64,000 bases of DNA from Candidatus Eiseniibacteriota bacterium (GTDB lineage: Bacteria; Eisenbacteria; RBG-16-71-46; SZUA-252), in assembly GCA_036380835.1 (NCBI GenBank), contig DASVDZ010000081.1:18749-82748 (forward strand), given 5' to 3'. Of this stretch, positions 4,786 to 47,633 are shown one piece after another (position 1 is the stretch's first letter; every line of letters starts with the position of its first letter). The notes under the pieces are model-generated. The model searched no databases. It had not been told where the DNA came from and saw only the letters and a list, made by a program, of their open reading frames with translations. The position numbers and the translations under genes were made by a program.

Positions 4786-6885
4786 CGGCCTCGCGTCGAC
4801 GGCGACCCGGCGCTCCCGGCGCGCCGGCGCCGGCTCGCCGCACCGCTCGCACCGCGTGAGGGTCCGCGCCCGCTCCACGTAGTCCGCGACCGTCGCGACG
4901 AACCACGCGTGCGCCCCGAGCGAGGGGGACGCGCTCACCGTTCCCCCGCCGTACGGATGGAGCTGCTCCGGAAGGCAGCCCGCCCCCTCCGCCCGCGCCG
5001 CCGCCCAGAGGAGAAGGATCCGCGCCCCGGCGAGGTCCTGCAGGCTCCGCGCCGAGCGGATCGAGTGCTGCGCGAGCCAGAGCGTGGCCGCGATCCAGGG
5101 GTTCCCCGGCACTTCCGCGAGGTCGCTCCCGATCGAGCCGAGCGCGTCTCGCTCGTAGCGCGCGAGCCCGCCGACGCCGGTCCGGACCCAGAGTCGCGCC
5201 TTCACCGCGTCCACGGTGGCGCGGACGCGCGGGTCCTCGGGCTCGAGATCGTCGAAGAGCCCGAGCCAGAGCAGCGAGGCGTCGAGCGTCGCGTCGACCG
5301 CGCGCGCGTCCCCTTCGCGCGGCGCCGAGCGGACGAAGCGGCCGAGGTCGGGGCGATAGAACTCCCGCACCATCGCGCGCGAGACGAGGTCGGCCGCCAC
5401 GATCCACGAGCGGGCCCGGGCCGACTCGCCGAAGAAGGCGGCGAGACGCGACGCGCCGCGCAACCCGCCGCGCACGGCCGCGGCGACGGAGGCGTGAGCC
5501 CCCCAACGCTCCTCCCAGAGATCGGTCGAGAGCGGAAGGCCCGTGCGCGCGTCGAGCGCCGCGGCGAGGCGGTCGGCGGCGGGCGCCATCACGTCGAGGA
5601 AGAGGGGCGCCATGAACTCGGCGTCCCGTTCCCGCTCGAAGTGGCGCGCGGCGGCCCACAGATGGAGCGCTACGCCGTCGAGCGCGCGGCGGGAGCGGTC
5701 GGCGGCCGGGGCGGGGGAGCCCGCCGCGTCGAGCACCGGCACGAGCTCGCCCGCCTCCAGCGCCGCGCGGCCGGCGAACGAGAGGTAGCGCCGCGTCGCG
5801 GCCGGATAGCCCGCCCGTCCGAGCGCGTCGGCGGCGATCGAGGCGTCGCGGAGCCAGCACCAGCGGTATTCGGGGCGCGCCGCCGGCCCCGACGGAGGCT
5901 CGACGCCCGAGAGGATCGCGCCGTCCGGCGTCTGGTGGAGCCGGAGCGTGACGAGGCTCTTCGTGTAGAGGGCGTTCACGTCCTCGGGCAGGTCGGCCCG
6001 ATCGCGCGCTCCGTGGCTCGCCCAGACGTTCCAGTACGAGCGCGTGCGCGTGGTCAGAGCCGCGATCCCGCTCCGCCTGAACGCGGCGTCGACGTCGCGC
6101 GCCTCGGGGATCGTGCGCGCCGCGGCGATCGACGCGGTCACCATGGCGGCGGCCCCCGGGGCGAGCGGGATGGGAACGCCGATGACCGAATCGACGATGC
6201 CGCTCGCCTCGGCGGCGCCCTGGATCCGGCCCTGGGCCGCCTCCTCCGCGGTTCCCGGCGCTTCCTCGGAGGCACGCGCGGCGGCGGCGGCGAAGACGAT
6301 GCCGGGGCCGTCCGGTCCATCGAGATTCAGGAGCAGCGCACGGCGGCCGGCGTGGTGGATCAATCCGCCGCTCGCCGCGTCGCGCAGGGCGGCCTCGCCC
6401 GTGCTCGGCGTGCCGGGCGCGAGCCTCAGGTCGTGGTGCAGGAGGAGCCGCGCGTCGCGGAAGCGGTCGCCGCGGTTCGTCACCTGGATCCGCCGCGCGA
6501 GGAGGGGGAGGCGGCTCAAGACGAGCGACTCGACCCAGACCTCGAGGCCCCAATCGGGCGCGATCAGGGAGAAGTCGGCGATCGGCGCGTCGCCCATGTG
6601 GCCCGCGGTCGAGTGAAACCCTTCGGACAGCCACCGGAACACGCCGTCCACCACGAGCGCGATCCGCGCGGGGCGGCGGAGGAGCTGATGGTCGGGAGCG
6701 AGGTGGGGCGCGTAGAGCTCGTGCAGGGCCGCCGCGCGGTCCCCGGTCGCGAGGATGGTTCCGTTTCCGATCACGAACGCGCGCGACAGACGATCCTCCT
6801 TGGAATCCCGCTCCAACTTCGATGCCGCCGGGCCGCACGCTACCAGACGCGCTCGACCGCGGTCAACGGCTCCCCCGCGAACCAA
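4756..6885 (-). CDS. Glycoside hydrolase family 15-like protein (glucoamylase/trehalase superfamily)
   Basis: N-terminal VIGNGTILATG and the central EYRWCWLRDAS (WxRD) motif are typical of GH15 from memory. The start is uncertain because there is no good RBS. It overlaps the convergent gene by 30 nt at 4756-4785. Confidence 0.6.
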   Translation of the reverse strand: MVRGGAVDRGRARLVACGPAASKLERDSKEDRLSRAFVIGNGTILATGDRAAALHELYAPHLAPDHQLLRRPARIALVVDGVFRWLSEGFHSTAGHMGDAPIADFSLIAPDWGLEVWVESLVLSRLPLLARRIQVTNRGDRFRDARLLLHHDLRLAPGTPSTGEAALRDAASGGLIHHAGRRALLLNLDGPDGPGIVFAAAAARASEEAPGTAEEAAQGRIQGAAEASGIVDSVIGVPIPLAPGAAAMVTASIAAARTIPEARDVDAAFRRSGIAALTTRTRSYWNVWASHGARDRADLPEDVNALYTKSLVTLRLHQTPDGAILSGVEPPSGPAARPEYRWCWLRDASIAADALGRAGYPAATRRYLSFAGRAALEAGELVPVLDAAGSPAPAADRSRRALDGVALHLWAAARHFERERDAEFMAPLFLDVMAPAADRLAAALDARTGLPLSTDLWEERWGAHASVAAAVRGGLRGASRLAAFFGESARARSWIVAADLVSRAMVREFYRPDLGRFVRSAPREGDARAVDATLDASLLWLGLFDDLEPEDPRVRATVDAVKARLWVRTGVGGLARYERDALGSIGSDLAEVPGNPWIAATLWLAQHSIRSARSLQDLAGARILLLWAAARAEGAGCLPEQLHPYGGGTVSASPSLGAHAWFVATVADYVERARTLTRCERCGEPAPARRERRVAVDARPSLPGIVAHP

Positions 6886-6935
6886 CGGAGATGTCGATTG
6901 ACACGCGTCACCCCCGCGTTACGATCTACCCCCGC

Positions 6936-8417
6936 ATGCATTCAACCTTGGACGTTCTGCCGGCGTCGGTCCGAGACGCGCTGCTCGCCGTCCATCTGCT
7001 GGTCTGGGCCGTCCTCGCCGTCTTCGGCCTCCATCGGCTCCATCTGATCCGGCTCTACAAGCGGCGCCGCCGCGATGTCGCGCGTCCGGTGCCTCCCGAC
7101 GAGTGGCCGCGCGTGACGATCCAACTCCCGGTCTACAACGAGCGATACGTGGTCGAGCGCCTGCTCGAGGCGGCGGCCGCCATGGACTACCCCGCCGCGC
7201 GACTGGAGATCCAGCTTCTCGACGATTCCATGGACGAGACCGTGGCGATCGCCGCCGCGAAGGTCGCGGCGCTCCGGGCGCGCGGACTCGACGTGGCGCA
7301 CGTCCGCCGCCCCACGCGCGCGGGTTTCAAGGCGGGCGCCCTCCAGTACGGGCTCGAGCGCGCGAAAGGGGACCTCGTGGCGATCTTCGACGCGGACTTC
7401 GTGCCGCCCCCGACGTTCCTGCGCGACCTGGTCCCCTACTTCTCGTCGCCCGACGTCGGCATGGTCCAGGCGCGGTGGCGCCACCTGAATCAGGACTACT
7501 CCATGCTGGCGCAGGCCCAGGCGATCTCGCTCGACGGCCACTTCGTGATCGAGCACGCGGCGCGGATGGCGGGCGGGCGATTCTTCAACTTCAACGGCAC
7601 CGCCGGAATCCTGCGCCGGGCGTGCATCGTCGACGCCGGCGGATGGCAGGCGGACACGCTGACGGAGGATCTCGACCTCTCCTATCGCGCGCAGATGAAG
7701 GGCTGGCGCTTCGTGTTCGCGCCGGAGGTCGGCTGCCCCTCGGAGCTCCCGGTCGAGATGAACGCCTTCAAGGCGCAGCAGCACCGCTGGGTCAAGGGCT
7801 CGATCCAGGTGGCGCGGAAGATCCTCCCCGGCCTCTGGCGCTCGTCCCTTCCGCTCGCGATCAAGGTGGAGGCGACGTTCCACCTCACGTACAACGTGGC
7901 GTACGTGTTCCTTCTCCTGCTCTCCGCGATCGTCTATCCGGTGGTCCTCGCGCGGTACGAGAGCCGGAGCCTCCTCTTCACGGCGGTCGACGCCGTGCTC
8001 TTCCTCACGGCGACCTTCTCCGTGCTCTACTACTTCGCCACGGCGCAGCGCGAGTCGCGATCCGACTGGCGCGCCCAGCTCCGCTACGTTCCGTTCGCGA
8101 TGTCGCTCGGGATCGGGCTCGCCGTCAACAACTCGCGCGCCGTGCTCGAGGCGATCTTCGGATCGCGCGGCGACTTCCTCCGCACGCCCAAGTTCCGGAT
8201 CGAGGGGCGGACGGATCGTTGGCGGGGGAAGCGTTACCGCTCGGCCGTCAGCGGCTGGGCTCTGGTCGAGCTGTCGCTCGGGGCCTACTTCGCGTGGGCG
8301 ATGCTGGCGCTCGTCCACCACCATCTCTTCGCGCCGCTGCCGTTCTTCCTCCTCTATCTATTCGGGTTCCTGTACGTGGGCGGAGTCTCGCTCGTCCACG
8401 CCGTGCGCCGGGCCTGA
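6936..8417 (+). CDS. Processive family-2 glycosyltransferase (cellulose-synthase-like, D,D,D,QxxRW)
   Basis: DDS, DADF, TED and the QQHRW(VKG) motifs are present. A TM hairpin precedes the catalytic domain and several TM helices lie at the C-terminus. Alternative in-frame starts are 6891 and 6822. Confidence 0.8.
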   Translation: MHSTLDVLPASVRDALLAVHLLVWAVLAVFGLHRLHLIRLYKRRRRDVARPVPPDEWPRVTIQLPVYNERYVVERLLEAAAAMDYPAARLEIQLLDDSMDETVAIAAAKVAALRARGLDVAHVRRPTRAGFKAGALQYGLERAKGDLVAIFDADFVPPPTFLRDLVPYFSSPDVGMVQARWRHLNQDYSMLAQAQAISLDGHFVIEHAARMAGGRFFNFNGTAGILRRACIVDAGGWQADTLTEDLDLSYRAQMKGWRFVFAPEVGCPSELPVEMNAFKAQQHRWVKGSIQVARKILPGLWRSSLPLAIKVEATFHLTYNVAYVFLLLLSAIVYPVVLARYESRSLLFTAVDAVLFLTATFSVLYYFATAQRESRSDWRAQLRYVPFAMSLGIGLAVNNSRAVLEAIFGSRGDFLRTPKFRIEGRTDRWRGKRYRSAVSGWALVELSLGAYFAWAMLALVHHHLFAPLPFFLLYLFGFLYVGGVSLVHAVRRA

Positions 8418-9740
8418 CCCGGGCCGGCGTCCCGCTCCCCGAGCCTCGGTCCCGGCCCGGACGCGCCGCGCGCGGCCCGACCGCCGCGCGGCGGCCGCCA
8501 CGATCCACGCCGAGACGAGCCCGCCGTACTCCACCCACGGCATCCACGGCGGGAGCGCCCAGAGGCCCGTCGCGCGGAACGCCGGGAGCGGGAGGTAGGA
8601 GAGCGCCACGAGCCCCGAGAAGAGGAGGAATCCCGCGTCCGGGTGGAGCGGCAGGAGCGCGACGGCGGGCACGAGGTACCACGGAAAGACCGTGGGGCTC
8701 GCCAGGAGGAACGCGATCCAGAGGGCGAGCGTGGCGCCGGTCGCCGTGCGGGCGCGCCAGGCGATGCCGAGCGACGCGGCGGCGAGCGCCACCGCCAGGA
8801 TGAGGCGCGGCGGATCGCCCCGGTGGAAGTGCGGGCGGAGGATCGCGTAGAGCGAGCCGTTCCACTCCCAGTTCCTCGTGTAGGCCTCGAGGCCCCCCCA
8901 GAGCGCGCGCCCGGCGCCGGTAAAGGGAGCGAAGAGGAGCGCGCCCGCGACGGCCGCCACGGCAAGCGTCGCCCACCGCCGGCGGCGCGCGACGGCCGGG
9001 ACGAGGAGGAGCGGGACGTACTTGGTGAGCGCGGCGAGCGCGAACGTTACGCCGGCGCCGATCGAGCGCCCCCGCTCGAGGAGCGCCAGCGAGAGAACGA
9101 GGAACGCCGCCGTGGCGAGGTCGACGTGGCCGCTCCCGTAGCACTCGACGACGACGAGCGGGTTCCAGTAGTAGAGTAGGAGCCGCTCGGCCGGCAATCC
9201 GCGCCGCGCGAGGAGCCACGCGAGCGCCGCGACGAGAAGGGCCTCGAGGAGGAAGAGGAGCCCCTTCCAGGCGCGCGGCGAGGGCTCGACGCGCGCCGCG
9301 GCCCCGAAGAGGAGCTCGGCCGCGGGCGGGTAGACGGTCGGCACGTCGGCATGGTTGAGCTTCGCGAAGAGGCCGTCCCGAAATCGCGCGAGCGCGGGGT
9401 CGCTCGGCGGATGGGGGTAGGGATTGACCCCCGCCGCGACGAGGCGGCCGTCCCAGAGATAGCGGTAGAGATCCTCGGAGAGGGTCGGCGCCGACGGCAG
9501 GAGCAGGAGGCGCGGCACGAGCCCCACGAGGAGCACGAGCCAGAGGCCGCGCGAACGGCCGCCGGTCGCGGCGCCCCCGCGCAGGACGACCCAGGACGCG
9601 GCGAGGTAGAGGGCGTGCGCAGCGCCCCAGACGAGGACGAGCGTCCGGACGTGCCGGCCGAGGTCGCCCGCCCACGAGAGCGACGCGAGGGCGGCCGCGG
9701 CCGGGATGCCGAGAAGGAGGAGCAGCGCTTGTCGATTCAA
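8358..9740 (-). CDS. Polytopic membrane glycosyltransferase-like protein (DUF2029 / GT87-like)
   Basis: At least 10 predicted TM helices. DLYRYLWDGRLVAAGVNPY resembles DUF2029/mannosyltransferase families. The 3' end overlaps the GT2 gene by 60 nt, convergently. Confidence 0.5.
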   Translation of the reverse strand: MNRQALLLLLGIPAAAALASLSWAGDLGRHVRTLVLVWGAAHALYLAASWVVLRGGAATGGRSRGLWLVLLVGLVPRLLLLPSAPTLSEDLYRYLWDGRLVAAGVNPYPHPPSDPALARFRDGLFAKLNHADVPTVYPPAAELLFGAAARVEPSPRAWKGLLFLLEALLVAALAWLLARRGLPAERLLLYYWNPLVVVECYGSGHVDLATAAFLVLSLALLERGRSIGAGVTFALAALTKYVPLLLVPAVARRRRWATLAVAAVAGALLFAPFTGAGRALWGGLEAYTRNWEWNGSLYAILRPHFHRGDPPRLILAVALAAASLGIAWRARTATGATLALWIAFLLASPTVFPWYLVPAVALLPLHPDAGFLLFSGLVALSYLPLPAFRATGLWALPPWMPWVEYGGLVSAWIVAAAARRSGRARRVRAGTEARGAGRRPGSGPAHGVDERDSAHVQEPE

Positions 9741-9745: not shown

Positions 9746-10882
9746 GTGGCGGATGCGATCCGTCCGATGAGCCCGCGCCGGAAGCGATCGCCCGCCGGCG
9801 CGCCGGACGCGCATCATACCAGGAAGCCCGGGGAGTCGGGCGTCCGCGCCCCCGCCGAGCTCGCCGCGTCCGATCCCGAGCTGCGGGGCCTCTGGGAGGC
9901 GGCGCCGCCCCTCGTCGAAGCGAGCCGCGCCTCCACGGTCACGCAGAACATGATCGGTGTGAGCCCCCGGATGCAGCGAATCTTCCGGCTCATCGAGAAG
10001 GTCGCGCCGACCGAGAGCACGGTCCTGATCACGGGCGAGAGCGGCACGGGGAAGGAGATGGTCGCGACGGCGATCCATCTCCAGAGCCGCCGGGCGCACC
10101 GGCCGTTCGTCGTGGTGAACGCCGCCGCCGTCCCCGAGACGCTCTTCGAAAGCGAGCTCTTCGGGCACGTGAAGGGGGCCTTCACCGGCGCCATCGCCGA
10201 CAAGCGCGGGCTCCTCCACCAGGCGGACGGCGGCACCCTCTTCCTCGACGAGGTGGCCGAGATGCCGCTCGCCGTGCAGGCGAAGCTCCTTCGCGCGCTC
10301 CAGAGCGGCGAGGTCCGCCGCGTCGGGGCCGCCGAGACGCTGCACGTCGACGTGCGCGTGATCGCCGCGACGAACCGCGATCTCCCGCGGGCGCTCGCGG
10401 AGGGGCGCCTGCGCGAGGATCTCTTCTACCGCCTGAGCGTCTTCCAGATCGAGATGCCGCCCCTTCGGGAGCGGCGCGAGGACATCCCGCTCCTCGCGAA
10501 CTACTTTCGGCAGCGCTACGCCCGGCGACTCGGGAAGAGGGTCGACCGGTTCACCGAGCGGGCGCAGTTCTATCTCCTTCGCTACGACTACCCGGGGAAC
10601 GTGCGCGAGCTCGAGAACGCCGTCGAGCGCGCGGTGACGCTCGCCGAGCACGGCGAGATCACGCACATGGACCTCCCCCCCACGTTCCGCGACGCCCCGA
10701 TCCGGCTCCTGCAGGAAGGGAGCGCCTTCCCCTACACCGAGACCCTGTCGCTGGCCGATCTCGAGGCGGAGCACATCCGGCGCGTGCTCACGCACTTCGC
10801 CGGGAACGCCACCAAGGCGGCTCGCTCGCTCGGAATTTCCCGGTCGACCTTGTGGCGAAAGATGAGAGAATACGGCCTGTGA
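9746..10882 (+). CDS. Sigma-54-dependent transcriptional activator (bEBP) with no N-terminal receiver or sensor domain (PspF/HrpR-like architecture)
   Basis: AAA+ sigma-54 interaction domain with Walker A GESGTGKE, the GAFTGA loop and ESELFGH, plus a C-terminal Fis-type HTH (ATKAARSLGISRSTLWRKMREYGL). Only ~65 low-complexity residues precede the AAA+ core. The true start may be the internal ATG at 9947 (MIGVSPRMQ). Confidence 0.85.
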   Translation: MADAIRPMSPRRKRSPAGAPDAHHTRKPGESGVRAPAELAASDPELRGLWEAAPPLVEASRASTVTQNMIGVSPRMQRIFRLIEKVAPTESTVLITGESGTGKEMVATAIHLQSRRAHRPFVVVNAAAVPETLFESELFGHVKGAFTGAIADKRGLLHQADGGTLFLDEVAEMPLAVQAKLLRALQSGEVRRVGAAETLHVDVRVIAATNRDLPRALAEGRLREDLFYRLSVFQIEMPPLRERREDIPLLANYFRQRYARRLGKRVDRFTERAQFYLLRYDYPGNVRELENAVERAVTLAEHGEITHMDLPPTFRDAPIRLLQEGSAFPYTETLSLADLEAEHIRRVLTHFAGNATKAARSLGISRSTLWRKMREYGL

Positions 10883-11000
10883 GTGTATCGAAATGGATCA
10901 ATGATACGCTCTATTATGAAACGGTTGACACGGTTTGGAACGCCGACCAAGGCAGGCATGATCTAGGTAAACATAGAAGTTACTTGTAGTTAACGGCGAA
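10883..11000 (+). promoter_or_regulatory. AT-rich upstream region with repeats, a candidate enhancer (UAS) and bending site for the sigma-54 promoter
   Basis: The local GC is far below the genome average. It holds the imperfect palindrome GTGTATC-N13-GATACGC at 10892-10919, the direct repeat ACGGTT-GAC-ACGGTT, and an A/T tract TAGGTAAACATAGAAGTTACTTGTAGTTAAC. Confidence 0.35.
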
Positions 11001-11009
11001 ACTCCTCCG

Positions 11010-11025
11010 TGGCACGGTCGCTGCA
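11010..11025 (+). promoter_or_regulatory. Sigma-54 (RpoN) -24/-12 promoter
   Basis: TGGCACG-GTCG-CTGCA has exact GG/GC spacing against the consensus TGGCACG-N4-TTGCA. It sits 85 nt upstream of the hsp20 start. Confidence 0.7.
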
Positions 11026-11110
11026 GTAAGCTCCCGGTGGTAGACCTGCGCGGGAACCATAGCCGCGCGAAGTGAACCCCAGGAACCCATTCAGCAAGGA
11101 GGAGACGCAT

Positions 11111-11548
11111 ATGGCTCTGGTTCGTTGGAATCCGACCCGCGATCTATTCCGGGACGACATGGCGCGCATCATGGACGAGTTCCTCGGACGCCGGCTCGAC
11201 GTGGAGAGCTCCACGGTCTGGCAGCCCGCCGTCGACATCGAGGAGAACGCGGAAGGATACCTCGTTCGCGCGGAGCTCCCGGGCATGAAGCTCGAGGACA
11301 TCAAGATCACGCTCAGCGAGGGGCAGCTCGTGGTGCGCGGCGAGAAGCGGCGCGAAGAGGAGAAGTCGGGCGCGACCTACCATCGCGTCGAGCGCGTCTA
11401 CGGGACGTTCGAGCGCGCGTTCACCCTCGGTCACGCGGTGAAGACCGACTCGATCGAGGCGACGTATCGCGACGGCGTGCTCGAGGTTCGCGTTCCGAAG
11501 GCCGAGGAGGCCAAGACGCGGGAGATCCCGATCAAGGTCGCGAAGTAG
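11111..11548 (+). CDS. Small heat-shock protein (Hsp20/alpha-crystallin family)
   Basis: AGGAGG RBS then ATG (MALVRWNPTRDLF...). The alpha-crystallin domain reads ...LVRAELPGMKLEDIKITLSEGQLVVRGEK...GTFERAFTL... Confidence 0.9.
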   Translation: MALVRWNPTRDLFRDDMARIMDEFLGRRLDVESSTVWQPAVDIEENAEGYLVRAELPGMKLEDIKITLSEGQLVVRGEKRREEEKSGATYHRVERVYGTFERAFTLGHAVKTDSIEATYRDGVLEVRVPKAEEAKTREIPIKVAK

Positions 11549-11581
11549 CGAGCGGTAGAAGACATCGGCCGGAGAGGGCGA

Positions 11582-11644
11582 GTTCCCGCGAGGGAACGCG
11601 CCCGCCGGCACATCCAGGCGCGGGACGGAGGGTCCGTCCCGCGC
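11582..11644 (+). other. Two perfect hairpins between hsp20 and dnaK
   Basis: GTTCCCGCGAGGGAAC (11582-11597) and GCGCGGGACGG-agggt-CCGTCCCGCGC (11618-11644, 11-bp stem). The second ends 6 nt before the dnaK RBS GGAGGGGG. Confidence 0.5.
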
Positions 11645-11660
11645 GATTCGGAGGGGGACC

Positions 11661-13592
11661 ATGGGAAAGATCATCGGAATCGACCTCGGCACGACGAACT
11701 CGTGCGTCGCCGTGATGGAAGGCGGCGAGCCCGTCGTGATCGCGAACTCCGAGGGAGCCCGAACGACTCCCTCCATCGTCGCGTTCACCAAGGCGGGCGA
11801 GCGCCTCGTCGGACAGGTCGCCAAGCGCCAGGCCGTGACGAATCCGCAGAACACCGTCTACTCGATCAAGCGCTTCATGGGCCGGAAGCACTCGGAGGTG
11901 ATCGAGGAAGAGAAGAACGTGCCCTACGCGGTCAAGGAAGGGCCGGGCGGCCAGGTCGTCGTTCAGCTGGGCGACAAGTCGTACACGCCGCCCGAGATCT
12001 CCGCGATGATCCTCCAGAAGATGAAGCAGACCGCGGAGGACTACCTGGGCGAGAAGGTGACCGAGGCGGTCATCACCGTGCCGGCCTACTTCAACGACTC
12101 GCAGCGCCAGGCGACCAAGGACGCGGGCCGGATCGCTGGCCTCGAGGTGAAGCGGATCATCAACGAGCCGACCGCGGCCGCGCTCGCGTACGGCCTCGAC
12201 AAGAAGAAGGACGAGAAGATCGCCGTCTACGACCTGGGCGGCGGCACGTACGACATTTCCGTGCTCGAGCTGGGCGACGGCGTCTTCGAGGTCAAGTCCA
12301 CGAACGGCGACACGCACCTGGGCGGCGACGACTTCGACAAGCGCGTGATCGACTGGCTCGCCGAGGAGTTCCGGAAGTCGGACGGCATCGACCTCCGCAA
12401 GGACCCGATGGCGCTCCAGCGGCTCAAGGAGGCCGCCGAGAAGGCCAAGATCGAGCTCTCGACCGTCATGCAGACCGACGTGAACCTGCCGTTCATCACG
12501 GCCGACGCGAACGGGCCGAAGCACCTGAACCTGACGCTGACCCGGGCGAAGTACGAGCAGCTCGTCGACGATCTCATCCAGCGGACGATCGAGCCGATGG
12601 AGCGCGCGCTCGCGGACGCGGGGCTCAAGCCGACGGAAATCGACGAGGTGATCCTGGTCGGCGGCGCGACGCGCACGCCGAAGGTCCAGGAGGTCGTGAA
12701 GAAGTTCTTCGGCAAGGAGCCGCACAAGGGCGTGAACCCGGACGAGGTCGTAGCGATCGGCGCGGCCATCCAGGGCGGCGTCCTCGCGGGCGACGTGAAG
12801 GACGTGCTCCTGCTCGACGTGACGCCCCTGTCGCTCGGGATCGAGACCCTGGGCGGCGTGATGACGAAGCTGATCGAGCGGAACACGACGATTCCGACCA
12901 AGAAGACCGAGGTCTTCTCGACCGCGGCGGACGGTCAGACGACGGTGGAGATCCACGTGCTCCAGGGCGAGCGCGACCTGGCGGTCGACAACAAGACGAT
13001 CGGCCGGTTCCAGCTCACCGGCATTCCGCCGGCCCCGCGCGGGATCCCTCAGATCGAGGTGACGTTCGACATCGACGCGAACGGCATCCTCCACGTCTCG
13101 GCGCGCGACAAGGCGACCGGCAAGGAGCAGAAGATCCGGATCGAGGCGAGCGGCGGGCTGACCGAGCAGGAGATCAAGAAGATGGTCAGCGACGCGGAGG
13201 TCCACGCCTCGGAGGACAAGAAGAAGCGCGAGGAGATCGAGGTGAAGAACCGCGCCGACGCGCTCGCGTACGAGACGGAGAAGAACCTCAAGGAGTTGTC
13301 CGAGAAGATGGACGGCGCCGACAAGGCGAAGGTCGAGAGCGCGCTCGCCGACCTCAAGAAGGCGATCGAGTCCGGCGGAACCGAGTCGATCCGCACGGCC
13401 AGCGAGGCGATGAGCCGCGCGTGGAACGAGGTGTCGAGCAAGCTCTACGCGGAAGCCGGGAAGTCGGGTCCGGCGGGTCCCGGCGCCGGCCCCGAGGGCG
13501 GGGACGCGGGGGGCGGCCCGTCCGCGGAGGGCGGCAAGAGGAAGGACGGCGGCGACGGGGCGGTGGACGCGGACTACGAGGTCGTGAAGTAG
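11661..13592 (+). CDS. dnaK: Chaperone DnaK (Hsp70)
   Basis: [18 protein letters not shown]..., DLGGGTFD, a full-length 643-aa Hsp70 with a Gly-rich C-terminal tail. Confidence 0.98.
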
Positions 13593-13608: not shown

Positions 13609-16023
13609 TCACGTTGCTTCGGGGCCTCCGCGGGGAACCCCGCGGGGGCCTTCCTGTTTCCTTCGCTCCCCGTGCCGCCGCCAGATCAGGCGCGCGGGCG
13701 CCTGCGTGAGCGCGATCACGACGAGGAGCCCCGCGTGCGCCACCGCGTAGCGCGCGATCAGCGCGGCCCCGCTCACGTAGTGCGCCCGGTCGGGGCTCAG
13801 CAGGAACTGCATCGCCGAGAAGGTTCGATCGTACTTCTCGATCACGCCCGCCGTGCCGAGCGTGAGCGCGATCCATCCCACCGGGAGGGTCGCCGCGGCG
13901 AGGGCCGCCGCGACCACGCGGCGGGTCCCGCGTCCGGGGAGCGCCGCCAGGGCCGATCCTCCGGTCGCCACGGCCAGGAGCCACGCGCCGAGCATGACCG
14001 ACGCGCCGAGGCCGCCGCCGCCGGCCATCAGCTCCGTCAGATTGTCGGTCGCCGCGCGCGTCACGACGACCCAGTGCGCCACGGCGAGCGCCGGTACCGC
14101 CGTGACCGCCCAGCGAAGGAACGCGCGCCCGTAGTGGCGCCGCCGCGCTCCGGCCAGGAAGCCCGCGAGGAGCGCGCCTCCCGTCAGGAGCATCGATACC
14201 GCCCCGAAGAGCGCGACGAAGCGTCCGATCATCTCCAGCTCCAACGGCCACTCGAGGACGGGTGATCCCACCACGTCGTGGATCGCCTCCATCGGGACGA
14301 CGGCGCGCACGGCGACCCACGCGGCGAGGGCGTGCGCCAGCGCGAGCGCCGGGAGATACGCGGCGCGGCGCCACCCGTCGTGAGCGGCCCAGCGGGCCGC
14401 GAGGAGCGGGGGAGCGAACGCGGCGAAGAGGACCAGGGGAAACCCGGCGACGGCGAGCGCGGTGCCGCCGCGCCCGAATAGCTCGCGCACGTTGTAGGGC
14501 ACGCCCGGGGAGAGCGCCGCCACGGCCGAGATCGAGACGAGCGCCGCGTAGCCGACCGCGAGCGCGATCGCGGCGCCGCGGAGCGTCCAGCCCCGGCGGA
14601 CCGTCGCGCCGTCTTCCGGTGGGGAGTCCACGCGCGGCGCGGGGTCGGGAGCGATCGCCGCCGTCCGGGGAGGCGCCGCGGCCATCCGCCGCGCGATCGC
14701 GCGGGCGCCCGCGTATCCCGCGGCGCCCCCCACGGCGGCGAGGAGCCAATCGGCCGAATCGGGCGTCTTGCTCGGCAGGAAGACCTGCACCGCCTCGATC
14801 AGGAAGGCGCCGGCGCCGATCGCGGCGACCGACCCGGCGGCGGCCGCGCGCCGTGCCCGCGCGCCGCGCACGCGCGCGAAGACCACCGCGAGGGCCACGC
14901 CGAGCGGGACGAAGAGGAACACGTTCTTGAGGAGTTCGTCGAAGGCGACGTACTCGGTGCCGGTCCAGTAGGCTCGGAACGGGACGGAGAAGAGGAGGCC
15001 GACGCGCGGATCGATGACGGCCCGCACGTATTCGAAGTCGTACGGATACCACGAGGCCGCGGCCACGAAGGCCGCCCATCCGAAGAAGGCGACGAGCGCG
15101 ACCCAGGGCGCGCGCGAGCCGTGTCCCGCCACCGCGGCGGCCGCCGCGGGGCCGCGGGGGCGGATCCGCGTTCCGAGCCAGGCGCCGAGCGCGCCGCCCG
15201 CGGCGGCGCAGATCACGTCGGTCACGTCGCAGACCCGGCTCTGCACGAGGAGCTGCGCCGCCTCGACCGCCATCGCGAGGAGCACGGTGAGGCACCACCC
15301 GACCGACGGCGCGCCGCGGCCGATCGTCCAGAGCGCCGGGAGCGGGAGCCAGAGCGCCGCCTCGATCCCGAGCGACCAGAGCGCCTCGATCGGGCTTCGA
15401 CCGAGCCCCGAGAACGGGACCAGGTGGATCATGCCGCGGTGCCACTTCTCGTAGATCACGTGGGGGCTCGAGGTGAGGTCGAGCGGCATGAGGTCGTAGA
15501 GGAGGAGAAAGGCGACGTAGGGCGGGAGGAGCCAGCGGGCGACGCCTTCGCGGCCGCTCACCTCCCCCCAGCGGTCGAGCGCGGCCCGAACCCGATCGCC
15601 CGCGATCCACCACCCGATCACGCCCATCGCGGCTCCGATCGAGCCCGCGATCACGTCGTAGAAGGAGACCGAGCGCGCGGGAACGTAGATCTGCGCGAAC
15701 TCGAGCGCCATGACGAAGAGGAGGCCGGCGAGCCAGACCGCGGCGCTCCGGAGGATCCCCGCGAAACCCCGGGGTCGCGCGCCGAGGACTCCCGCCCAGA
15801 GGAAGGCGAAGACGGCGAAGAGGATCACGTTCGCCGTGAAGTCGGAGCGGTAGAGGCGCCCCAGGTGGAGCGTGAGGATGGGACGGTAGCGCGCCAGCGC
15901 CGCGGCCCACGCCACCGGGGCGAACCGGAGCGGGACGAGGCACCCGTAGACGACGAAGAGGGTATAGCCGATCGCGGGGAAACGGAGCGCGCGGACTCCG
16001 GCCTGGCTTCGAATGCGGTTCAA
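13609..16023 (-). CDS. Large polytopic membrane protein containing several tandem VanZ-like domains
   Basis: 804 aa, about 20 predicted TM helices. The VanZ-type segments (RSDFTANVILF...EFAQ..., ...DVTDVICAAAGGALG...) recur three times. Confidence 0.6.
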   Translation of the reverse strand: MNRIRSQAGVRALRFPAIGYTLFVVYGCLVPLRFAPVAWAAALARYRPILTLHLGRLYRSDFTANVILFAVFAFLWAGVLGARPRGFAGILRSAAVWLAGLLFVMALEFAQIYVPARSVSFYDVIAGSIGAAMGVIGWWIAGDRVRAALDRWGEVSGREGVARWLLPPYVAFLLLYDLMPLDLTSSPHVIYEKWHRGMIHLVPFSGLGRSPIEALWSLGIEAALWLPLPALWTIGRGAPSVGWCLTVLLAMAVEAAQLLVQSRVCDVTDVICAAAGGALGAWLGTRIRPRGPAAAAAVAGHGSRAPWVALVAFFGWAAFVAAASWYPYDFEYVRAVIDPRVGLLFSVPFRAYWTGTEYVAFDELLKNVFLFVPLGVALAVVFARVRGARARRAAAAGSVAAIGAGAFLIEAVQVFLPSKTPDSADWLLAAVGGAAGYAGARAIARRMAAAPPRTAAIAPDPAPRVDSPPEDGATVRRGWTLRGAAIALAVGYAALVSISAVAALSPGVPYNVRELFGRGGTALAVAGFPLVLFAAFAPPLLAARWAAHDGWRRAAYLPALALAHALAAWVAVRAVVPMEAIHDVVGSPVLEWPLELEMIGRFVALFGAVSMLLTGGALLAGFLAGARRRHYGRAFLRWAVTAVPALAVAHWVVVTRAATDNLTELMAGGGGLGASVMLGAWLLAVATGGSALAALPGRGTRRVVAAALAAATLPVGWIALTLGTAGVIEKYDRTFSAMQFLLSPDRAHYVSGAALIARYAVAHAGLLVVIALTQAPARLIWRRHGERRKQEGPRGVPRGGPEAT
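13623..13662 (+). terminator. Probable intrinsic terminator of dnaK, lying inside the 3' coding end of the convergent gene
   Basis: A 12-13 bp GC stem (GGCCTCCGCGGGG / CCCCGCGGGGGCC) is followed by the T-rich TTCCTGTTTCCTT. Confidence 0.45.
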
Positions 16024-16251
16024 CCGGTACCCTCGTCCTCGTCGTGATCGGGCGGAGGGCGCGCGGAGACCGCGCGACGGCGCGCCCGGGGGGGCTCGAG
16101 CCCGCCGATGGAAGCACGGAGCGCCGCCTCTTGGCCAGCGTTCGATTCCGCCCCCGCGCGAATCCGGGTCGCGATCGACGCGCCGGTACGTACTCCAGGG
16201 TGAACGATCCTACCGCGTCCGTACCCGAACCCCCATCCACGGAGACCGATC

Positions 16252-28597: not shown

Positions 28598-28877
28598 CGA
28601 CCGCATCCGCGGAGACGCCGCGGCATCCAAGGCACAGCGAGACGCACGAGCGTCGGACCGGCTGCAATCAGCCGTGCAAAATGCGTCCCGCGTAAAGTCC
28701 CCCACCCCCCACGTCCCCTCCCCCGATATTTATAAGTATTTGTAATAGATGTCGATACGGAGAATCCGCGGCGCCTTCGCCTGGTGCGGATTCCGCAGTT
28801 CGCCATGGCATGGTCGGTGCGAAAGGTCGTACCAGGGGATGCCGAAGAGAGTGCCAGGGGGCGGCGAGGAGGGCTCT

Positions 28878-29690
28878 ATGGACGGAACCAAAGGGAAGTC
28901 GTATCTGAGGCTGACCGTCGATCCGGGAGTTCGCGGCCCGGTGACGCGGGAGGACGTCGGCTACTTCTTCATCAACTCGTTCCTCCTCTCGCGGATCGAC
29001 TCCGACATGCCGTCCGACCTCGCCGAATACGACGAGGACGTGAACGTCTATACCGCCTCGCTCCTCGCGGGAGTGGTGTCGGGCCGGGAGGACCTCCTGC
29101 GCGCCGACCTCGTCTCGACCCGTGACGCGGACGTCTTCGCTCGCGTCCAGGAGAGCAAGGACCGGCGGCTCCGGTACCAGGTCTACAAGGCCAACGCCGA
29201 CTTCCTCTACGTCTCGCTCGGCGTCTTCGCCGAGGGCGTGGTACCGCGCGAGCCCGTGGCGGCCTCGGAGGCCGACGCGCAACGGCTCACCGGCCGCGGG
29301 AAGTCGTACTACCATTTCGCCTCGGCCTACGCCGAGCGGCTCTACGGATCGCGCGCCGGCATCGCCGAGGTCATGGAGAAGCTCTCGCGGAACTTCGAGG
29401 CCTACACCAAGGTGATGTCCTGGATGAGCGGGGAGTACCTCAATCTCGTGCGCCGGCTGAGCGAGGGCGAGGTCTTCCACATCGAGCGGGACGCCCAAAG
29501 CCGCTTCGAGGACGCCCACAAGTCGAACACCTGGGACGAGCTGCTCGACGCGTACGTCGAGTGGCAGAAGTCGCACGCCGTCCAGGCGCGCCGGCGCCTG
29601 ACGCGCGCCGCGCGCGAGCTCAAACGGATCGATCCCCAGTTCTCGTTCCGCGCCTTCCGCGAGAAGTGGGGCTCGCCGCGCCGGACCTGA
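28878..29690 (+). CDS. Hypothetical cytoplasmic protein
   Basis: ATG 5 nt after GAGGAGGG. Balanced composition (...DVNVYTASLLAGVV...YYHFASAYAERLYG...YVEWQKSH...). I recognise no family. The N-terminal extension in track ORF 28749.. is probably non-coding. Confidence 0.5.
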   Translation: MDGTKGKSYLRLTVDPGVRGPVTREDVGYFFINSFLLSRIDSDMPSDLAEYDEDVNVYTASLLAGVVSGREDLLRADLVSTRDADVFARVQESKDRRLRYQVYKANADFLYVSLGVFAEGVVPREPVAASEADAQRLTGRGKSYYHFASAYAERLYGSRAGIAEVMEKLSRNFEAYTKVMSWMSGEYLNLVRRLSEGEVFHIERDAQSRFEDAHKSNTWDELLDAYVEWQKSHAVQARRRLTRAARELKRIDPQFSFRAFREKWGSPRRT

Positions 29691-37801: not shown

Positions 37802-40420
<2,619 letters not shown>

Positions 40421-40438: not shown

Positions 40439-40520
40439 GTAGCGTGGCGGTTCGCCAATTTCCGGAGAATCCGCAGCTTACGTCGCCTCCCGCCGGTCCG
40501 GCCGGTGATCCGGGGTCGCC

Positions 40521-40985
40521 ATGCGCCTGTCCGAGCTGATCAACGAACAATCGGTGCGGCTCTCGCTCGAAGCGCGCGAGAAGGAAGCGTGCATCAAGGA
40601 GCTGGTCCAGCTCCTCGAATCGGCGCACGGCGTCAACACCAAGGGCGAGATCCTGAGCAAGGTGCTGCAGCGCGAGTCGATGATGTCGACCGGGATCGGC
40701 AACGGCGTCGCGATCCCGCACGGCAAGACGCGGCTCCTCGATCACCTGGTGGCCGCCTGCGGCGTCTCTCCCGCCGGGATCGACTTCGATTCCATGGACG
40801 GAGAGCCGGCGACCCTGTTCATCCTCCTCGTCTCCCCCGAGAGCCTCCGCGGCCCCCACGTGAAGGCGCTGGCGAACGTTTCGCGGCTCCTCAAGGAGGA
40901 GTCGGTTCGGGCCGCGCTCCGGCAGTGCGGGTCCCCCTCGGAGTTCCTGGCGACCCTGCGCGACGCCGAGCAGCGATATCTGTAG
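40521..40985 (+). CDS. ptsN: PTS EIIA-Ntr-type nitrogen regulatory protein
   Basis: PTS_EIIA_2 fold with the phosphorylatable His in ...GIGNGVAIPHGK.... 154 aa, no other PTS genes nearby. Confidence 0.8.
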   Translation: MRLSELINEQSVRLSLEAREKEACIKELVQLLESAHGVNTKGEILSKVLQRESMMSTGIGNGVAIPHGKTRLLDHLVAACGVSPAGIDFDSMDGEPATLFILLVSPESLRGPHVKALANVSRLLKEESVRAALRQCGSPSEFLATLRDAEQRYL

Positions 40986-44172: not shown

Positions 44173-45485
44173 AGTTCCAGGCTCCGAAGGGCACGCGCGA
44201 CATTCTTCCGGGTGAGTCCGAGTCGTGGACCGAGCTGGAGGCGTCGGCGCGCGACATCCTGGCCCGCTACGGCTACCGCGAAGTGCGGACTCCGATGTTC
44301 GAATCGACCGACCTCTTCGTCCGGAGCGTCGGCGAATCGACCGACATCGTCCGGAAGGAGCTCTACACGTTCGAGGACAAGGGGGGCCGTTCGCTCACGC
44401 TCCGTCCCGAGGGGACCGCGTCCCTGGTGCGCGCCTACCTGGAGCACTCGCTGGGCCACGGGCAGCCGATGGCCCGCTTCGCGTACGTGGGGCCGATGTT
44501 CCGGTACGAGCGCCCGCAGGCGGGAAGGTTCCGCCAATTCTGGCAGATCGGCGCGGAGCTGTTCGGCCCCGGGGGCCCCGCCGCCGACGCCGAGATGATC
44601 GATCTCTTCGTCGCGATCATCCGGGGCGCCGGCGTCCCGGACGTGACGGTGCTCCTGAATTCACTCGGCGACGACGTCTGCCGTCCGGCCTATCGCGAGC
44701 GGATCCGCGAGTACTTCACGGCGCGCGCCGACCGGCTGTGCGGCGACTGCAAGGAGCGGCTCCGCACCAACCCGCTCCGGATCCTCGACTGCAAGATCCC
44801 CGGCTGCCAGCCGGTGATCGAGGGGGCGCCGAGCGTGCTCGACACGCTCTGCGACCCGTGCCGCGAGCACTTCGACGGCGTCCAGGAGGCGCTCCGCGCG
44901 CTCGCGATCCCGGTCACGATCGCGCCGCGCCTCGTGCGCGGCCTCGACTACTACACGCGGACCGTCTTCGAGGTGCACGCGGGCTCCCTGGGCGCGCAGA
45001 ACGCGGTCGGCGGAGGCGGACGCTACGACGATCTCGTGGAGCAATTCGGCGGGCCGAAGACGCCGGCGATCGGCTTCTCGATCGGCACCGACCGCCTCCT
45101 CATGGCGGCGGGCCGGGCCGGCCCCGAAGGGGCCACGGCGTGGCGGCCGGACGTCTGCGTCCTGACGCGGGACCCCGGGGCTCTCGACCGGGCGCTCGCC
45201 GTCGCGCGCTCCCTCCGCGGCCTCGACGCGGGCGCCCCGGGGAGCGGCGCGGAGCGCCGGGAGACGTCGCTCCAGGTGATCGTCGACATCACGGGCCGGA
45301 GCGCGAACGCGCAGATGAAGTGGGCGTCCCGAACGGGGGCGCGCCACGTGGTGTTCGTGCCGCCCGACGCGGACGGCTACTCGATTCGGGACATGGAGGC
45401 GGGGAAGGACGAGGTGAAGCAGAAGACGATCGAGTCGCTCCGTGACTTCCTCCGCTCGCGCGCCGCGGAAGGAGCGCCCCGGTGA
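44169..45485 (+). CDS. hisS: Histidine--tRNA ligase
   Basis: MKFQAPKGTRDILP..., class-II motifs ...FRYERPQAGRFRQFWQIG... and ...GGGRYDDL... Confidence 0.95.
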   Translation: MKFQAPKGTRDILPGESESWTELEASARDILARYGYREVRTPMFESTDLFVRSVGESTDIVRKELYTFEDKGGRSLTLRPEGTASLVRAYLEHSLGHGQPMARFAYVGPMFRYERPQAGRFRQFWQIGAELFGPGGPAADAEMIDLFVAIIRGAGVPDVTVLLNSLGDDVCRPAYRERIREYFTARADRLCGDCKERLRTNPLRILDCKIPGCQPVIEGAPSVLDTLCDPCREHFDGVQEALRALAIPVTIAPRLVRGLDYYTRTVFEVHAGSLGAQNAVGGGGRYDDLVEQFGGPKTPAIGFSIGTDRLLMAAGRAGPEGATAWRPDVCVLTRDPGALDRALAVARSLRGLDAGAPGSGAERRETSLQVIVDITGRSANAQMKWASRTGARHVVFVPPDADGYSIRDMEAGKDEVKQKTIESLRDFLRSRAAEGAPR

Positions 45486-47275
45486 TCGAGCCCCTGGGCG
45501 GTCGGAAGCGGACGCATCGCTGCGGCGATCTGCGTCCCGAGCAGGCGGGGACGCGCGCGCGGCTCATGGGATGGGCGCATCGCGTGCGGGACCACGGCGG
45601 CGTTCTCTTCCTCGACCTCCGCGACCGCTACGGGGTGACCCAGATCGTCTTCCGTCCGGAGAAGTTGAACGAGAAGACGATGGAGCGGGCGCGCGCGATC
45701 GGGAGCGAGTGGGTCGTCATGGTGGAGGGGACCGTCCTGAACCGGCCGAAGGGGAGCGAGAACGACGACCTCCCGACCGGCGGGATCGAAATCGAGGCGG
45801 ACGGCCTCGCGATCCTGAACGCGAGCAAGACGCCCCCCTTCCCGGTGGACGACTCGGGCGTCGCGGCGTCGGAGGACCTCCGGCTCCGCTACCGCTACCT
45901 CGACCTCCGGCGCCCCGCGCTGCGCGACGGCATCGTCTTCCGTCACGCCATGACGCGGAGCGTGCGCGAATACCTCTCCGACCACGACTTCCTCGAGATC
46001 GAGACGCCGCTCCTCGTGAAGCCGACGCCCGAGGGGGCTCGCGACTACGTCGTGCCGGCGCGCGTCCACCCCGGGAAGTTCTACGCGCTGCCGCAGTCGC
46101 CGCAGCTCTACAAGCAGATCCTCATGGTCTCCGGATTCGACCGCTACTTCCAGATCGCGCGCTGCCTGCGCGACGAGGATCTCCGCGCCGACCGCCAGCC
46201 CGAGTTCACGCAGATCGACCTCGAGATGTCGTTCGTGACCGAGGATGACGTCTTCGGCGTGGTCGAGGGAATGCTGGAGTCGGTCTTCCGGCGCGACCTG
46301 GGCCGCGATCTCAAGATCCCGTTCCCGCGACTCACCTATCGCGACGCGATGGAGCGCTTCGGGAGCGACAAGCCCGACCTCCGCATCCCGTTCGAGATCA
46401 AGGACGTGACCGCGGTGTTGGGGGAGAGCGCATTCCAGGTCTTCCGCGCGGCCAAGGAAGGGGCTCCCGCCACGATGACGGGCGCGCTCGCCGTTCCCGG
46501 GCAGGGGTCGGCGTCGCGGAAGGAGATCGAGGGGTGGGAGGCGGCCGCGAAGGCGATGGGCGCCGCCGGGCTCGCGTGGGCGCGCGTCAAGGCGGGCGCG
46601 CTCGACGGGGGCGTCGCGAAGCACGTGACCGGCGATCTCGTCGCGCGCCTCCTCCAGACGGTGGGCGCCAAGGAGGGCGATCTCCTCCTCCTGGGCTCGG
46701 GCCCGCGTGCCGTCGTCCAGCGCGCGCTCGGCCACGTCCGCACCCAGATCGGGGCGCAGAAGTTCACGCTCGAGCCCGACGACTTCCGCTTCGTATGGGT
46801 CCACCAGTTCCCCCTCTTCGAACGGGACGAGGAGCGGAAGGCCTGGATCCCCGCGCACCACGTCTTCACGATGCCGCTCGACGAGCACCTGGCCCTGCTC
46901 GAGACCGATCCCGGGCGCGTGCACGGCCAGCTCTACGATCTCGCCGCGAACGGAAACGAGCTCGCGTCGGGGAGCATCCGGATCCATCGGAAGGACATCC
47001 AGGAGCGGGTCATGGCCGTGATCGGGATGCGCCCCGAGGAGCTGACGGCCAAGTTCGGGTTCCTCCTCGAGTCGTTCGAGTACGGCGCGCCGCCGCACGG
47101 CGGGATCGCGCTCGGGCTCGATCGCCTCGTGATCCTCTTCCACGGCGGCGACTCGATTCGCGACGCGATCGCGTTCCCGAAGACCGCGAGCGCCGCCTCG
47201 CTCATGGACGGCGCCCCCGCTCCGATCGACCCGGGCGACCTGAAGGACCTCCGAATCCGGATCGTCGCGGACTAG
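45482..47275 (+). CDS. aspS: Aspartate--tRNA ligase
   Basis: N-terminal OB fold (...GWAHRVRDHGGVLFLDLRDRYG...), class-II core (...FYALPQSPQLYKQ..., ...QIARCLRDEDLRADRQPEFTQID..., ...GSIRIH..., ...GLDRLV...). Confidence 0.95.
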   Translation: MIEPLGGRKRTHRCGDLRPEQAGTRARLMGWAHRVRDHGGVLFLDLRDRYGVTQIVFRPEKLNEKTMERARAIGSEWVVMVEGTVLNRPKGSENDDLPTGGIEIEADGLAILNASKTPPFPVDDSGVAASEDLRLRYRYLDLRRPALRDGIVFRHAMTRSVREYLSDHDFLEIETPLLVKPTPEGARDYVVPARVHPGKFYALPQSPQLYKQILMVSGFDRYFQIARCLRDEDLRADRQPEFTQIDLEMSFVTEDDVFGVVEGMLESVFRRDLGRDLKIPFPRLTYRDAMERFGSDKPDLRIPFEIKDVTAVLGESAFQVFRAAKEGAPATMTGALAVPGQGSASRKEIEGWEAAAKAMGAAGLAWARVKAGALDGGVAKHVTGDLVARLLQTVGAKEGDLLLLGSGPRAVVQRALGHVRTQIGAQKFTLEPDDFRFVWVHQFPLFERDEERKAWIPAHHVFTMPLDEHLALLETDPGRVHGQLYDLAANGNELASGSIRIHRKDIQERVMAVIGMRPEELTAKFGFLLESFEYGAPPHGGIALGLDRLVILFHGGDSIRDAIAFPKTASAASLMDGAPAPIDPGDLKDLRIRIVAD

Positions 47276-47338: not shown

Positions 47339-47354
47339 CTGGCACCCATTCTGC
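47339..47354 (+). promoter_or_regulatory. Sigma-54-like -24/-12 motif in the ORF-poor region after aspS
   Basis: TGGCACC-CATT-CTGCA with correct GG/GC spacing. A TTGACA hexamer lies 26 nt downstream at 47380-47385. Confidence 0.35.
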
Positions 47355-47633
47355 AATCCAAGACGAGACGTGCCGGGGTATTGACAACCCGGAGGCGAGC
47401 ACCTAGCTTGAATCGAGGTTCCGAGGGGCCCCGCGAGGGTCCCCAAAGCCAAACTAATTTGCTTAACGACAGCCACTTAGCTTTCTTCCGCAGCCCCCAC
47501 CGGGGGCCGCGTTCCGCCGACGGGCCGGGCGCCGCCGGTCGAGGGCTGGCCGCTCGGGATTGGCCGGCCGACCGGGGTCGGCCCGGAACGCGCGCCTCAC
47601 GATCTCTCCCGCGGGTCGCCTCTCTGGCCGTCC

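Follow-up and report, generated by a model that had tools for sequence, protein, structure and literature searches.

Three co-directional genes fill positions 9746-13592 of the 64-kb stretch of DNA from a metagenome-assembled Candidatus Eisenbacteria genome analysed here (hereafter, the window), and encode a bacterial enhancer-binding protein (bEBP), the small heat-shock protein Hsp20 and the chaperone DnaK. The initial annotation of this locus proposed that hsp20 and then dnaK lie behind a sigma-54 promoter, with the adjacent bEBP as their activator, and this predicted arrangement, whose elements are collected in Table 1, is supported by the comparative analysis of related loci. The 378-aa version of the activator, which begins at the upstream GTG, had no match in an exact-sequence look-up, and the database entry starts at the ATG; protein P0001 is the activator itself (100% identity over 371 aa). 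The ATG of hsp20 is preceded by a strong Shine-Dalgarno sequence, AAGGAGGAG, and the product of the third gene scores as a true DnaK with both PRK00290 (1050.4 bits against a cut-off of 648) and TIGR02350 (1018.9 against 822.55).

Table 1. Features of the activator-hsp20-dnaK locus, in window coordinates; promoter, enhancer and hairpin entries are predictions.
Feature	Position	Strand	Remarks
Receiver-less sigma-54 activator (bEBP) gene	9767..10882	+	371 aa; NCBI start ATG 9767; alternative GTG start 9746
Short motif ELAASDPELRGLWE in the disordered N-terminus of the activator	9857..9898	+	Family consensus ELASxDPxxRGLWE
GAFTGA loop, sigma-54 contact motif of the AAA+ domain	10175..10192	+	Intact in sequence
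C-terminal Fis-type helix-turn-helix (HTH_8)	10748..10873	+	Pfam E 2e-15
Enhancer dyad I TGTATCGAAATGGATCA	10884..10900	.	19.6 bits; centre at about -144 from the predicted start
Enhancer dyad II CGCTCTATTATGAAACG	10907..10923	.	22.7 bits, best in the window; centre at about -121
Weak third site TGACACGGTTTGGAACG	10926..10942	.	Below 10 bits; right half-site alone good; centre at about -102
AT-rich enhancer-promoter spacer	10943..11009	.	GC about 0.44-0.53
Sigma-54 promoter TGGCACGgtcgCTGCA (-24 GG, -12 GC)	11010..11025	+	Predicted start near 11036
hsp20, small heat-shock protein	11111..11548	+	145 aa; Pfam HSP20, E 1.1e-24
Two GC-rich hairpins in the hsp20-dnaK spacer	11568..11644	+	Minimum free energy -63.8 kcal/mol, z = -4.5
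dnaK (Hsp70)	11661..13592	+	643 aa; NCBIfam DnaK equivalog
Terminator-like hairpin closing the operon in this genome	13621..13652	+	14-bp stem, 11 GC pairs, T-rich tail (terminator scan)

Sigma-54 promoters are characterized by a GG at -24 and a GC at -12 with exact spacing between them (TGGCAC-N5-TTGCW). The element TGGCACG-N4-CTGCA, which the initial annotation had pointed out upstream of hsp20, displays this canonical GG/GC spacing, with exactly 85 nt between it and the hsp20 start codon. It is also unique, as the pattern TGGCACGNNNNYTGCW has no other match on either strand of the window, where the expected number of matches is 0.02 and a match arose in 2 of 100 shuffled sequences. Orthologous loci were gathered in two independent ways, by look-ups of activator homologues, which returned 8 distinct loci with a protein identity of 69-78%, and by a metagenome scan with Hsp20, which returned 80 loci with an Hsp20 identity of 40-77%. 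A -24/-12 element is found in all of the 34 related hsp20-dnaK loci analysed, every one from Candidatus Eisenbacteria, in a strict form in 25 and as a one-base variant in 9, and the column counts over these loci are T31 G34 G34 C29 A34 Y34 G30, N4, s, T34 G34 C33. In the 8 look-up loci the promoter is located 122-128 nt past the activator stop codon and, although the mean identity of the activator-hsp20 spacer is 54%, the TGGCA and TGC columns are invariant. Among the scan loci with an Hsp20 identity of at least 56% and usable upstream sequence, 15 are strict (14 distinct sequences) and L111 (CGGCACG..GTGC) and L106 (..TTGA) display one-base variants; upstream of about 50 more distant hsp20 genes without an adjacent dnaK no strict match was found. 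This phylogenetic footprint is strong evidence that the predicted sigma-54 promoter in front of hsp20-dnaK is functional.

The 8 look-up loci have in common the gene order GT2 / GT87(-) / activator / hsp20 / dnaK / msrA and, likewise, in scan loci with at least 56% Hsp20 identity the activator precedes hsp20 and dnaK follows it on every contig long enough to show them, L106, L110 and L136 being too short upstream and L111 downstream. Two groups of loci can be distinguished. In group A, the order bEBP-hsp20-dnaK is present in every locus with enough sequence. Group B comprises hsp20-dnaK loci of other Eisenbacteria, including the type metagenome-assembled genome (MAG) RBG_16_71_46, whose Hsp20 is 44-53% identical to that of the window and whose promoters read TGGCACG/TGGTACG/CGGCACG-N4-sTGC. 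In this group the upstream neighbour is not the activator but a divergent GT1 glycosyltransferase gene, and no bEBP gene was found in the 10 kb to each side; the activator of group B must reside elsewhere. The direct order of hsp20 and dnaK is maintained in all loci of both groups with sequence reaching that far. A scan of a genome collection with the activator, dominated by generic AAA+ peptide patterns, retrieved only unrelated bEBPs (about 50% identity). Taken as a negative control, not one of 80 such unrelated bEBP loci carries hsp20 or dnaK within 5 kb.

Some differences in the surroundings of these genes were also observed. The GT2 (Glyco_transf_21) gene and the divergent gene of the GT87/MptA-B family, located at 6822-9740 in the window, keep a strict synteny with the activator gene in group A (L083-L094), but in group B a GT2 homologue lies past dnaK, a sign that the surroundings of the chaperone operon were locally rearranged. 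In four group A loci (L083, L085, L089 and L093) a second, longer bEBP of 464-489 aa is encoded a few genes past msrA, about 5-6 kb downstream of the activator, and in three of them it follows a Ser/Thr kinase-TPR gene; this pair is absent from the corresponding part of the window.

The activator-hsp20 spacer of 228 nt harbors the AT-rich tract noted in the initial annotation (GC 0.44-0.46 across 10850-11000, against 0.70 for the window), and the role then suggested for it, that of an enhancer region, is borne out by the conserved 17-bp dyads predicted there. The conserved unit, yGTTyCA-N3-TGrAACr, has the 7-N3-7 geometry that is also that of NtrC sites, and its copies, 2-3 per locus, start immediately past the activator stop codon. 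When a matrix made solely from orthologous loci of other genomes was scored on the window, dyads I and II were the two best matches in the 64 kb, in which a total of 3 sites reach 10 bits. Across loci the dyad centres cluster at 131-133, 108-110 and 89-91 nt upstream of the -12 C. In group A a dyad occurs at 129-133 nt in 21 of the 23 loci and at 89-94 nt in 8 of these 23, the position at 106-110 nt is conserved, and most group B loci possess a third dyad. Outlier positions occur at 121 and 98-99 nt (L095, L111) and at 140-142, 118-120 and 95-97 nt (L130, L177), and since these loci shift by about 10-11 bp, approximately one helical turn, the helical phase of the dyads is kept. In fact, the phasing relative to the promoter gives a mean resultant R of 0.61 (n = 86), a value in which independence is overstated since the loci are related. 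A set of 2-3 dimer sites would suit the assembly of a hexamer.

The same dyads, again in 2-3 copies and at equal phased distances, accompany the promoters of group B, and because they occur there without an adjacent activator they are to be assigned to hsp20-dnaK and not to the 3' end of the activator gene. Likewise, as group B carries the same promoter and dyads, the module is to be seen as a trait of the phylum and not of a single genus. The two repeats which the initial annotation had considered as an upstream activating sequence plus a bending site, the palindrome GTGTATC-N13-GATACGC (10883-10909) and the direct repeat ACGGTT-gac-ACGGTT (10922-10936), are literally present, but neither is conserved in orthologous loci; both are specific to the window and straddle the conserved dyads, and were rejected as functional units. 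In the AT-rich DNA between enhancer and promoter, conservation across loci is limited to loose TAA and TTA patches. This spacer is possibly a bendable region or an IHF-like site; a second dyad or an IHF site at about -55 was rejected, as there is no convincing consensus beyond these patches.

The domain composition of the activator is that of a bEBP. Pfam detects Sigma54_activat (PF00158, E 4.5e-71), AAA_lid_14 and HTH_8, and leaves the first 60 or so residues free of domains, in agreement with the initial description of the gene at 9746-10882 as encoding AAA+ and helix-turn-helix (HTH) domains with no receiver, GAF or PAS domain. The Sigma54_activat domain possesses its Walker A motif and GAFTGA loop: Walker A, GESGTGKE, is intact and invariant among 34 orthologues, in which residues G137, T140, G141 and A142 of the loop are equally invariant, and the HTH segment SRSTLWRK is invariant in the orthologues as well. 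To this HTH would correspond the 2-3 conserved predicted sites at about 100-145 bp upstream of the predicted start. Its best 120 homologues share 68-86% identity and are 311-402 aa long, and none of these 120 contains a receiver, GAF or PAS domain. In addition, an invariant motif, G-x-AFPY (F321, P322, Y323), was observed in the low-confidence linker that joins the AAA lid to the HTH, at about 10715-10735.

The N-termini of the activator homologues are variable in length, basic and of low complexity, and AlphaFold2 models residues 14-61 of the activator as disordered (predicted local distance difference test, pLDDT, below 50). Nevertheless, this tail contains a short motif in which, among 34 orthologues, L42 and W43 never vary and E31, L32, A33, D36, P37, G41 and E44 show a conservation of at least 90%. 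A search of 1.84 billion cluster representatives returned about 209,000 bEBP-like proteins, mostly multi-AAA+ proteins and generic bEBPs, and the motif was absent from the ten short matches inspected among the best 150 of these. A conserved, tryptophan-containing motif in a tail modelled as disordered would most simply be a docking site for a partner, and ELASxDPxxRGLWE is the best candidate for the interface with an as yet unseen anti-activator. The constitutive activity which the initial annotation attributed to the bEBP is not established; the motif is conserved in a tail that is otherwise variable and disordered, which speaks against an activator that is simply constitutive and suggests control in trans.

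The spacer between hsp20 and dnaK measures 112 nt and folds into two hairpins, which are found in each of the 8 orthologous spacers examined, with the structure kept and the sequences differing; no Rfam family matches them. In these orthologues the second hairpin stops 10-25 nt before the Shine-Dalgarno sequence of dnaK, which leaves little room for a separate dnaK promoter, and we therefore infer that hsp20 and dnaK are co-transcribed. The hairpins are likely to act as intercistronic attenuators or stabilizers, or as protective ends after processing. In most relatives, but not in the window, the second stem carries GGAGGGG/CCCCTCC just 5' of the true dnaK Shine-Dalgarno sequence, that is, one arm resembling a Shine-Dalgarno sequence and one resembling its complement (matching spacers, L083-L093). 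On the other side of dnaK, an open reading frame (ORF) on the minus strand (13609-16209, about 867 codons) is convergent with it and, with a GC content at third codon positions of 0.91, is coding-like; it has no Pfam domain.

As for other control signals, the initial annotation had reported neither a CIRCE (controlling inverted repeat of chaperone expression)/HrcA element nor sigma-32-type hexamers, and both negatives hold: no CIRCE was found at up to 3 mismatches, and the best sigma-32-like promoter (CTTGAAA-N13-15-CCCCATNT) in 10883-11660 has 5/14 mismatches, which is the background level. Likewise, no HspR-associated inverted repeat (HAIR) closer than 3 mismatches exists in the whole window, and the best matches are not upstream of hsp20 or dnaK. 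The locus thus bears no mark of HrcA/CIRCE, HspR/HAIR or sigma-32 heat-shock control. An RNA thermometer of the ROSE, fourU or a similar type in the leader of hsp20 was rejected, since there is no Rfam match and the leader fold has a z of -0.18; in 23 hsp20 leaders the predicted accessibility of the Shine-Dalgarno sequence is nearly constant from 25 to 45 C. The clpB gene of the window (37803-40420) was considered as a second member of the regulon and also rejected, as it has neither a -24/-12 element nor dyads; it begins 25 nt past a ybgF-like gene of a tol-pal cluster, and a weak match to the dyad matrix at 36988 falls within the final part of pal. To the extent visible here, the regulon is narrow, consisting of hsp20-dnaK and, in some lineages, msrA, which is not a core member because it is not found downstream of dnaK in the window and in group B.

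A few additional observations concern the remainder of the window. A gene for a PtsN-like EIIA(Ntr) (40509-40985) follows clpB, and in many bacteria such a gene is part of the rpoN operon. A second plausible sigma-54 promoter, TGGCATGGTCGGTGC (28806-28820, plus strand), is located 57 nt before the ATG at 28878, which is provided with a Shine-Dalgarno sequence, GAGGAGGG, and opens a 270-aa ORF without a Pfam match, which a homoserine dehydrogenase gene follows; the AT-rich tract and the inverted repeat GGAATCCGC..GCGGATTCC upstream of it (28720-28800) constitute a different candidate enhancer. A third sigma-54-like site, TGGCACCCATTCTGCA (47340-47355, plus strand), lies in the spacer after aspS (45446-47275) and is followed, about 40 nt further, by a sigma-70-like TTGACA-N17-TAGCTT, GC-rich hairpin-forming DNA and a PhoH-like gene; no Rfam or tRNA match was found in this region (47380-47520).

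Based on this evidence, it is highly probable that Candidatus Eisenbacteria possess a dedicated sigma-54-dependent hsp20-dnaK chaperone module, the parts list, conservation and geometry of which can be read directly from the loci compared. According to established bEBP biology, dimers of the activator bound at the dyads would form the active hexamer, which would reach the sigma-54 holoenzyme at -24/-12 across the bendable AT-rich spacer and open the promoter through ATP hydrolysis via the GAFTGA loop. Both hsp20 and dnaK would then be present on one transcript, in which the spacer hairpins may set their ratio or stabilize the processed halves. Since the protein is devoid of a sensor, its activity is probably governed in trans via ELASxDPxxRGLWE. 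The most economical scheme would be a feedback inhibition in which DnaK (with DnaJ) or Hsp20 would sequester the activator or hand it over to a protease, and damaged proteins would titrate the chaperones away and free it. The hypothesis that the activator is, in this manner, a stress-sensing node, inhibited or degraded via its N-terminal motif by its own chaperones and released by the titration of these by damaged proteins, is a tentative one, which we regard as possible but not as probable.

Several points weigh against this interpretation. The chaperone-titration step is hypothetical, and the N-terminal motif may have a different function. The organism is uncultured and the case rests wholly on sequence, with rpoN lying outside the 64-kb window and related loci that are not independent samples, so that the statistics overstate significance. 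The cognate activator of group B is missing from the vicinity of hsp20-dnaK, as described above, and an extra dnaK promoter might be hidden in the structured spacer. Furthermore, because clpB has no such promoter and dyads, this is not, as far as seen, a general heat-shock regulon, and heat induction itself is assumed from the gene families, when the presence of msrA in most relatives fits oxidative protein damage equally.

In accordance with this last point, the same wiring may answer to a signal other than heat, such as oxidative or hypochlorite-type damage, desiccation or envelope stress, by means of a partner encoded elsewhere, which is a plausible alternative even if we would not expect it to be the case. 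In fact, msrA (PMSR) follows dnaK in 8/8 distinct group A arrangements from the look-up, clpB of the window is outside the module, and known sensor-less or orphan activators respond to non-thermal stresses, as PspF does to membrane stress. On the other hand, msrA is not downstream of dnaK in the window or in group B, and Hsp20 and DnaK classically respond to proteins denatured by heat; moreover, this alternative overlaps with the main interpretation and does not exclude it. That the activator is simply constitutive, ensuring a housekeeping supply of DnaK and Hsp20 that depends on how much activator or sigma-54 holoenzyme is present and not on a stress signal, seems to us unlikely. The absence of a sensory domain, the fact that no terminator was found between the activator gene and the enhancer, and the analogy with truncated bEBPs missing their regulatory domains, which are commonly constitutive, would all agree with it, but the strong conservation of the N-terminal motif argues for a selected interaction and tight on/off control is the normal use of sigma-54 promoters.

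The remaining alternatives question the DNA elements themselves. The dyads may be operators for another factor, for instance a repressor, with the activator acting elsewhere, such as on the upstream glycosyltransferase genes. The synteny of the GT2 and GT87 genes with the activator in group A and the fact that the pairing of dyads and activator is known from sequence alone speak in favor of this explanation, which we nevertheless consider very improbable: the dyads lie at the classical enhancer distance of about 100-145 bp upstream, are helically phased to the -24/-12 element and have NtrC-like 7-N3-7 geometry, the glycosyltransferase genes are preceded by neither dyads nor -24/-12 elements, and a sigma-54 promoter needs a bEBP to fire, the linked one being this activator. 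Finally, a sigma-70-like TCGAAA-18-TATTAT (10888-10917) overlaps the dyads, and hsp20-dnaK could be transcribed from promoters of this type if the -24/-12 match were fortuitous. This is scarcely credible, as it is contradicted by the conservation data, the -24 GG and the TG of the -12 TGC being kept in 34/34 loci although the surrounding intergenic DNA diverges freely, and 0.02 chance matches are expected per 64 kb.

The usual account of heat-shock regulation in bacteria invokes sigma-32 or the repressors HrcA, HspR and CtsR, and a dedicated sigma-54/activator hsp20-dnaK module, conserved across an uncultured soil phylum, would be a distinct wiring of the protein-damage response; if true, the core response of Eisenbacteria to proteotoxic stress would proceed via sigma-54. 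The control of domain-less activators is understood mainly from PspF and HrpR/S, and a bEBP controlled by chaperones would, if true, represent a new mechanism, the sigma-54 counterpart of the sigma-32/DnaK and HSF1/Hsp70 loops. The importance of the module would rise should the activator prove to be under chaperone control, or should rpoH and hrcA be absent from these genomes. In practice, the small activator, the defined 17-bp operator and a near-consensus promoter which E. coli sigma-54 should recognize provide a portable test system, and the combined signature of dyads and -24/-12 element is usable to annotate the regulon in Eisenbacteria MAGs.

In view of HsfA/lonD, ibpB and a survey from 2025, sigma-54 control of chaperones is not unprecedented. 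Ueki and Inouye reportedly described the control of lonD by HsfA and HsfB in Myxococcus xanthus, in which the receiver of HsfA is phosphorylated by the kinase HsfB. Like the protein described here, HsfA is a sigma-54 activator of a heat-shock gene, but its target is the Lon protease and not hsp20-dnaK, and the present activator has no Response_reg match, its residues 14-61 being disordered and its best 120 homologues equally devoid of a receiver. Kuczynska-Wisnik and colleagues are said to have found, in 2001, an internal sigma-54 promoter of ibpB in E. coli, which is likewise a small heat-shock gene. However, the main control of ibpB is by sigma-32, and we know of no dedicated activator with an adjacent gene in that case, whereas here sigma-54 appears to provide the principal promoter, dnaK included. 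Predicted sigma-54 promoters were also found to be enriched at groEL, groES, ibpA, grpE, dnaJ and dnaK in Planctomycetota and Bacteroidota, two groups outside the Proteobacteria (Carrera-Reyna et al. 2025, PMC12316311), and HsfA, which the initial annotation named as the known parallel, is thus not the sole one. That survey is a position-matrix enrichment whose passages on these promoters name neither activator, enhancer nor architecture and make no mention of Eisenbacteria, and with respect to these passages the present case adds a cognate activator, an enhancer motif and its phasing. In a sigma-54 comparison from 2011, chaperone/turnover is among the COG categories over-represented near sigma-54 genes, and no such module is described (PMC3162934). 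No study of gene regulation in Eisenbacteria was found, the literature on the phylum, among the matches listed, being ecological or of the genome-survey type. Accordingly, the activator family, its operator, the phased three-site enhancer and the link to dnaK appear to be undescribed.

The closest solved matches to the AAA+ and DNA-binding regions of the activator are ZraR (1OJL) and NtrC1 (4L4U/1NY6), with E values from 1e-90 to 1e-77; in the ranking of PDB sequences ZraR 1OJL (E 1.3e-90) and Aquifex NtrC1/NtrC4 come ahead of the more distant PspF (about 1e-64). The predicted sites of the activator share their NtrC-like 7-N3-7 geometry with NtrC-type systems, but where ZraR and NtrC1 have N-terminal receivers controlled by phosphorylation the activator has a disordered tail. 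The feedback proposed here has its counterparts in the titration circuits sigma-32/DnaK-DnaJ, HspR/DnaK and HrcA/GroEL, in which the regulator is restrained by chaperones under its own control. Those regulators are, however, a sigma-70-family factor or repressors, whereas here it would be an AAA+ bEBP in a hypothetical interaction. The label 'PspF-like' given to the activator in the initial annotation is appropriate for its architecture but not for its family, ZraR and NtrC1 being closer: the activator is not an orthologue of PspF, scoring 280.2 bits with TIGR02974 against 443.55 and 237.7 with PRK11608 against 529, and no pspA-like gene was seen beside it in the window or in related loci with Pfam-labelled genes. 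Moreover, the PspF system targets membrane-stress proteins from a divergent gene, and PspF is without the tail of about 60 disordered residues with its conserved motif, whereas the present targets are cytosolic chaperones and the activator gene is co-directional with them. Nevertheless, both systems combine an AAA+ and HTH protein devoid of a sensory domain, encoded beside its target operon, with tandem upstream sites and a bendable spacer in front of a sigma-54 promoter that serves stress-protective genes. In the phage-shock system of E. coli the anti-activator is PspA, the first product of the operon, and a feedback of this kind is what we propose for the hsp20-dnaK module.

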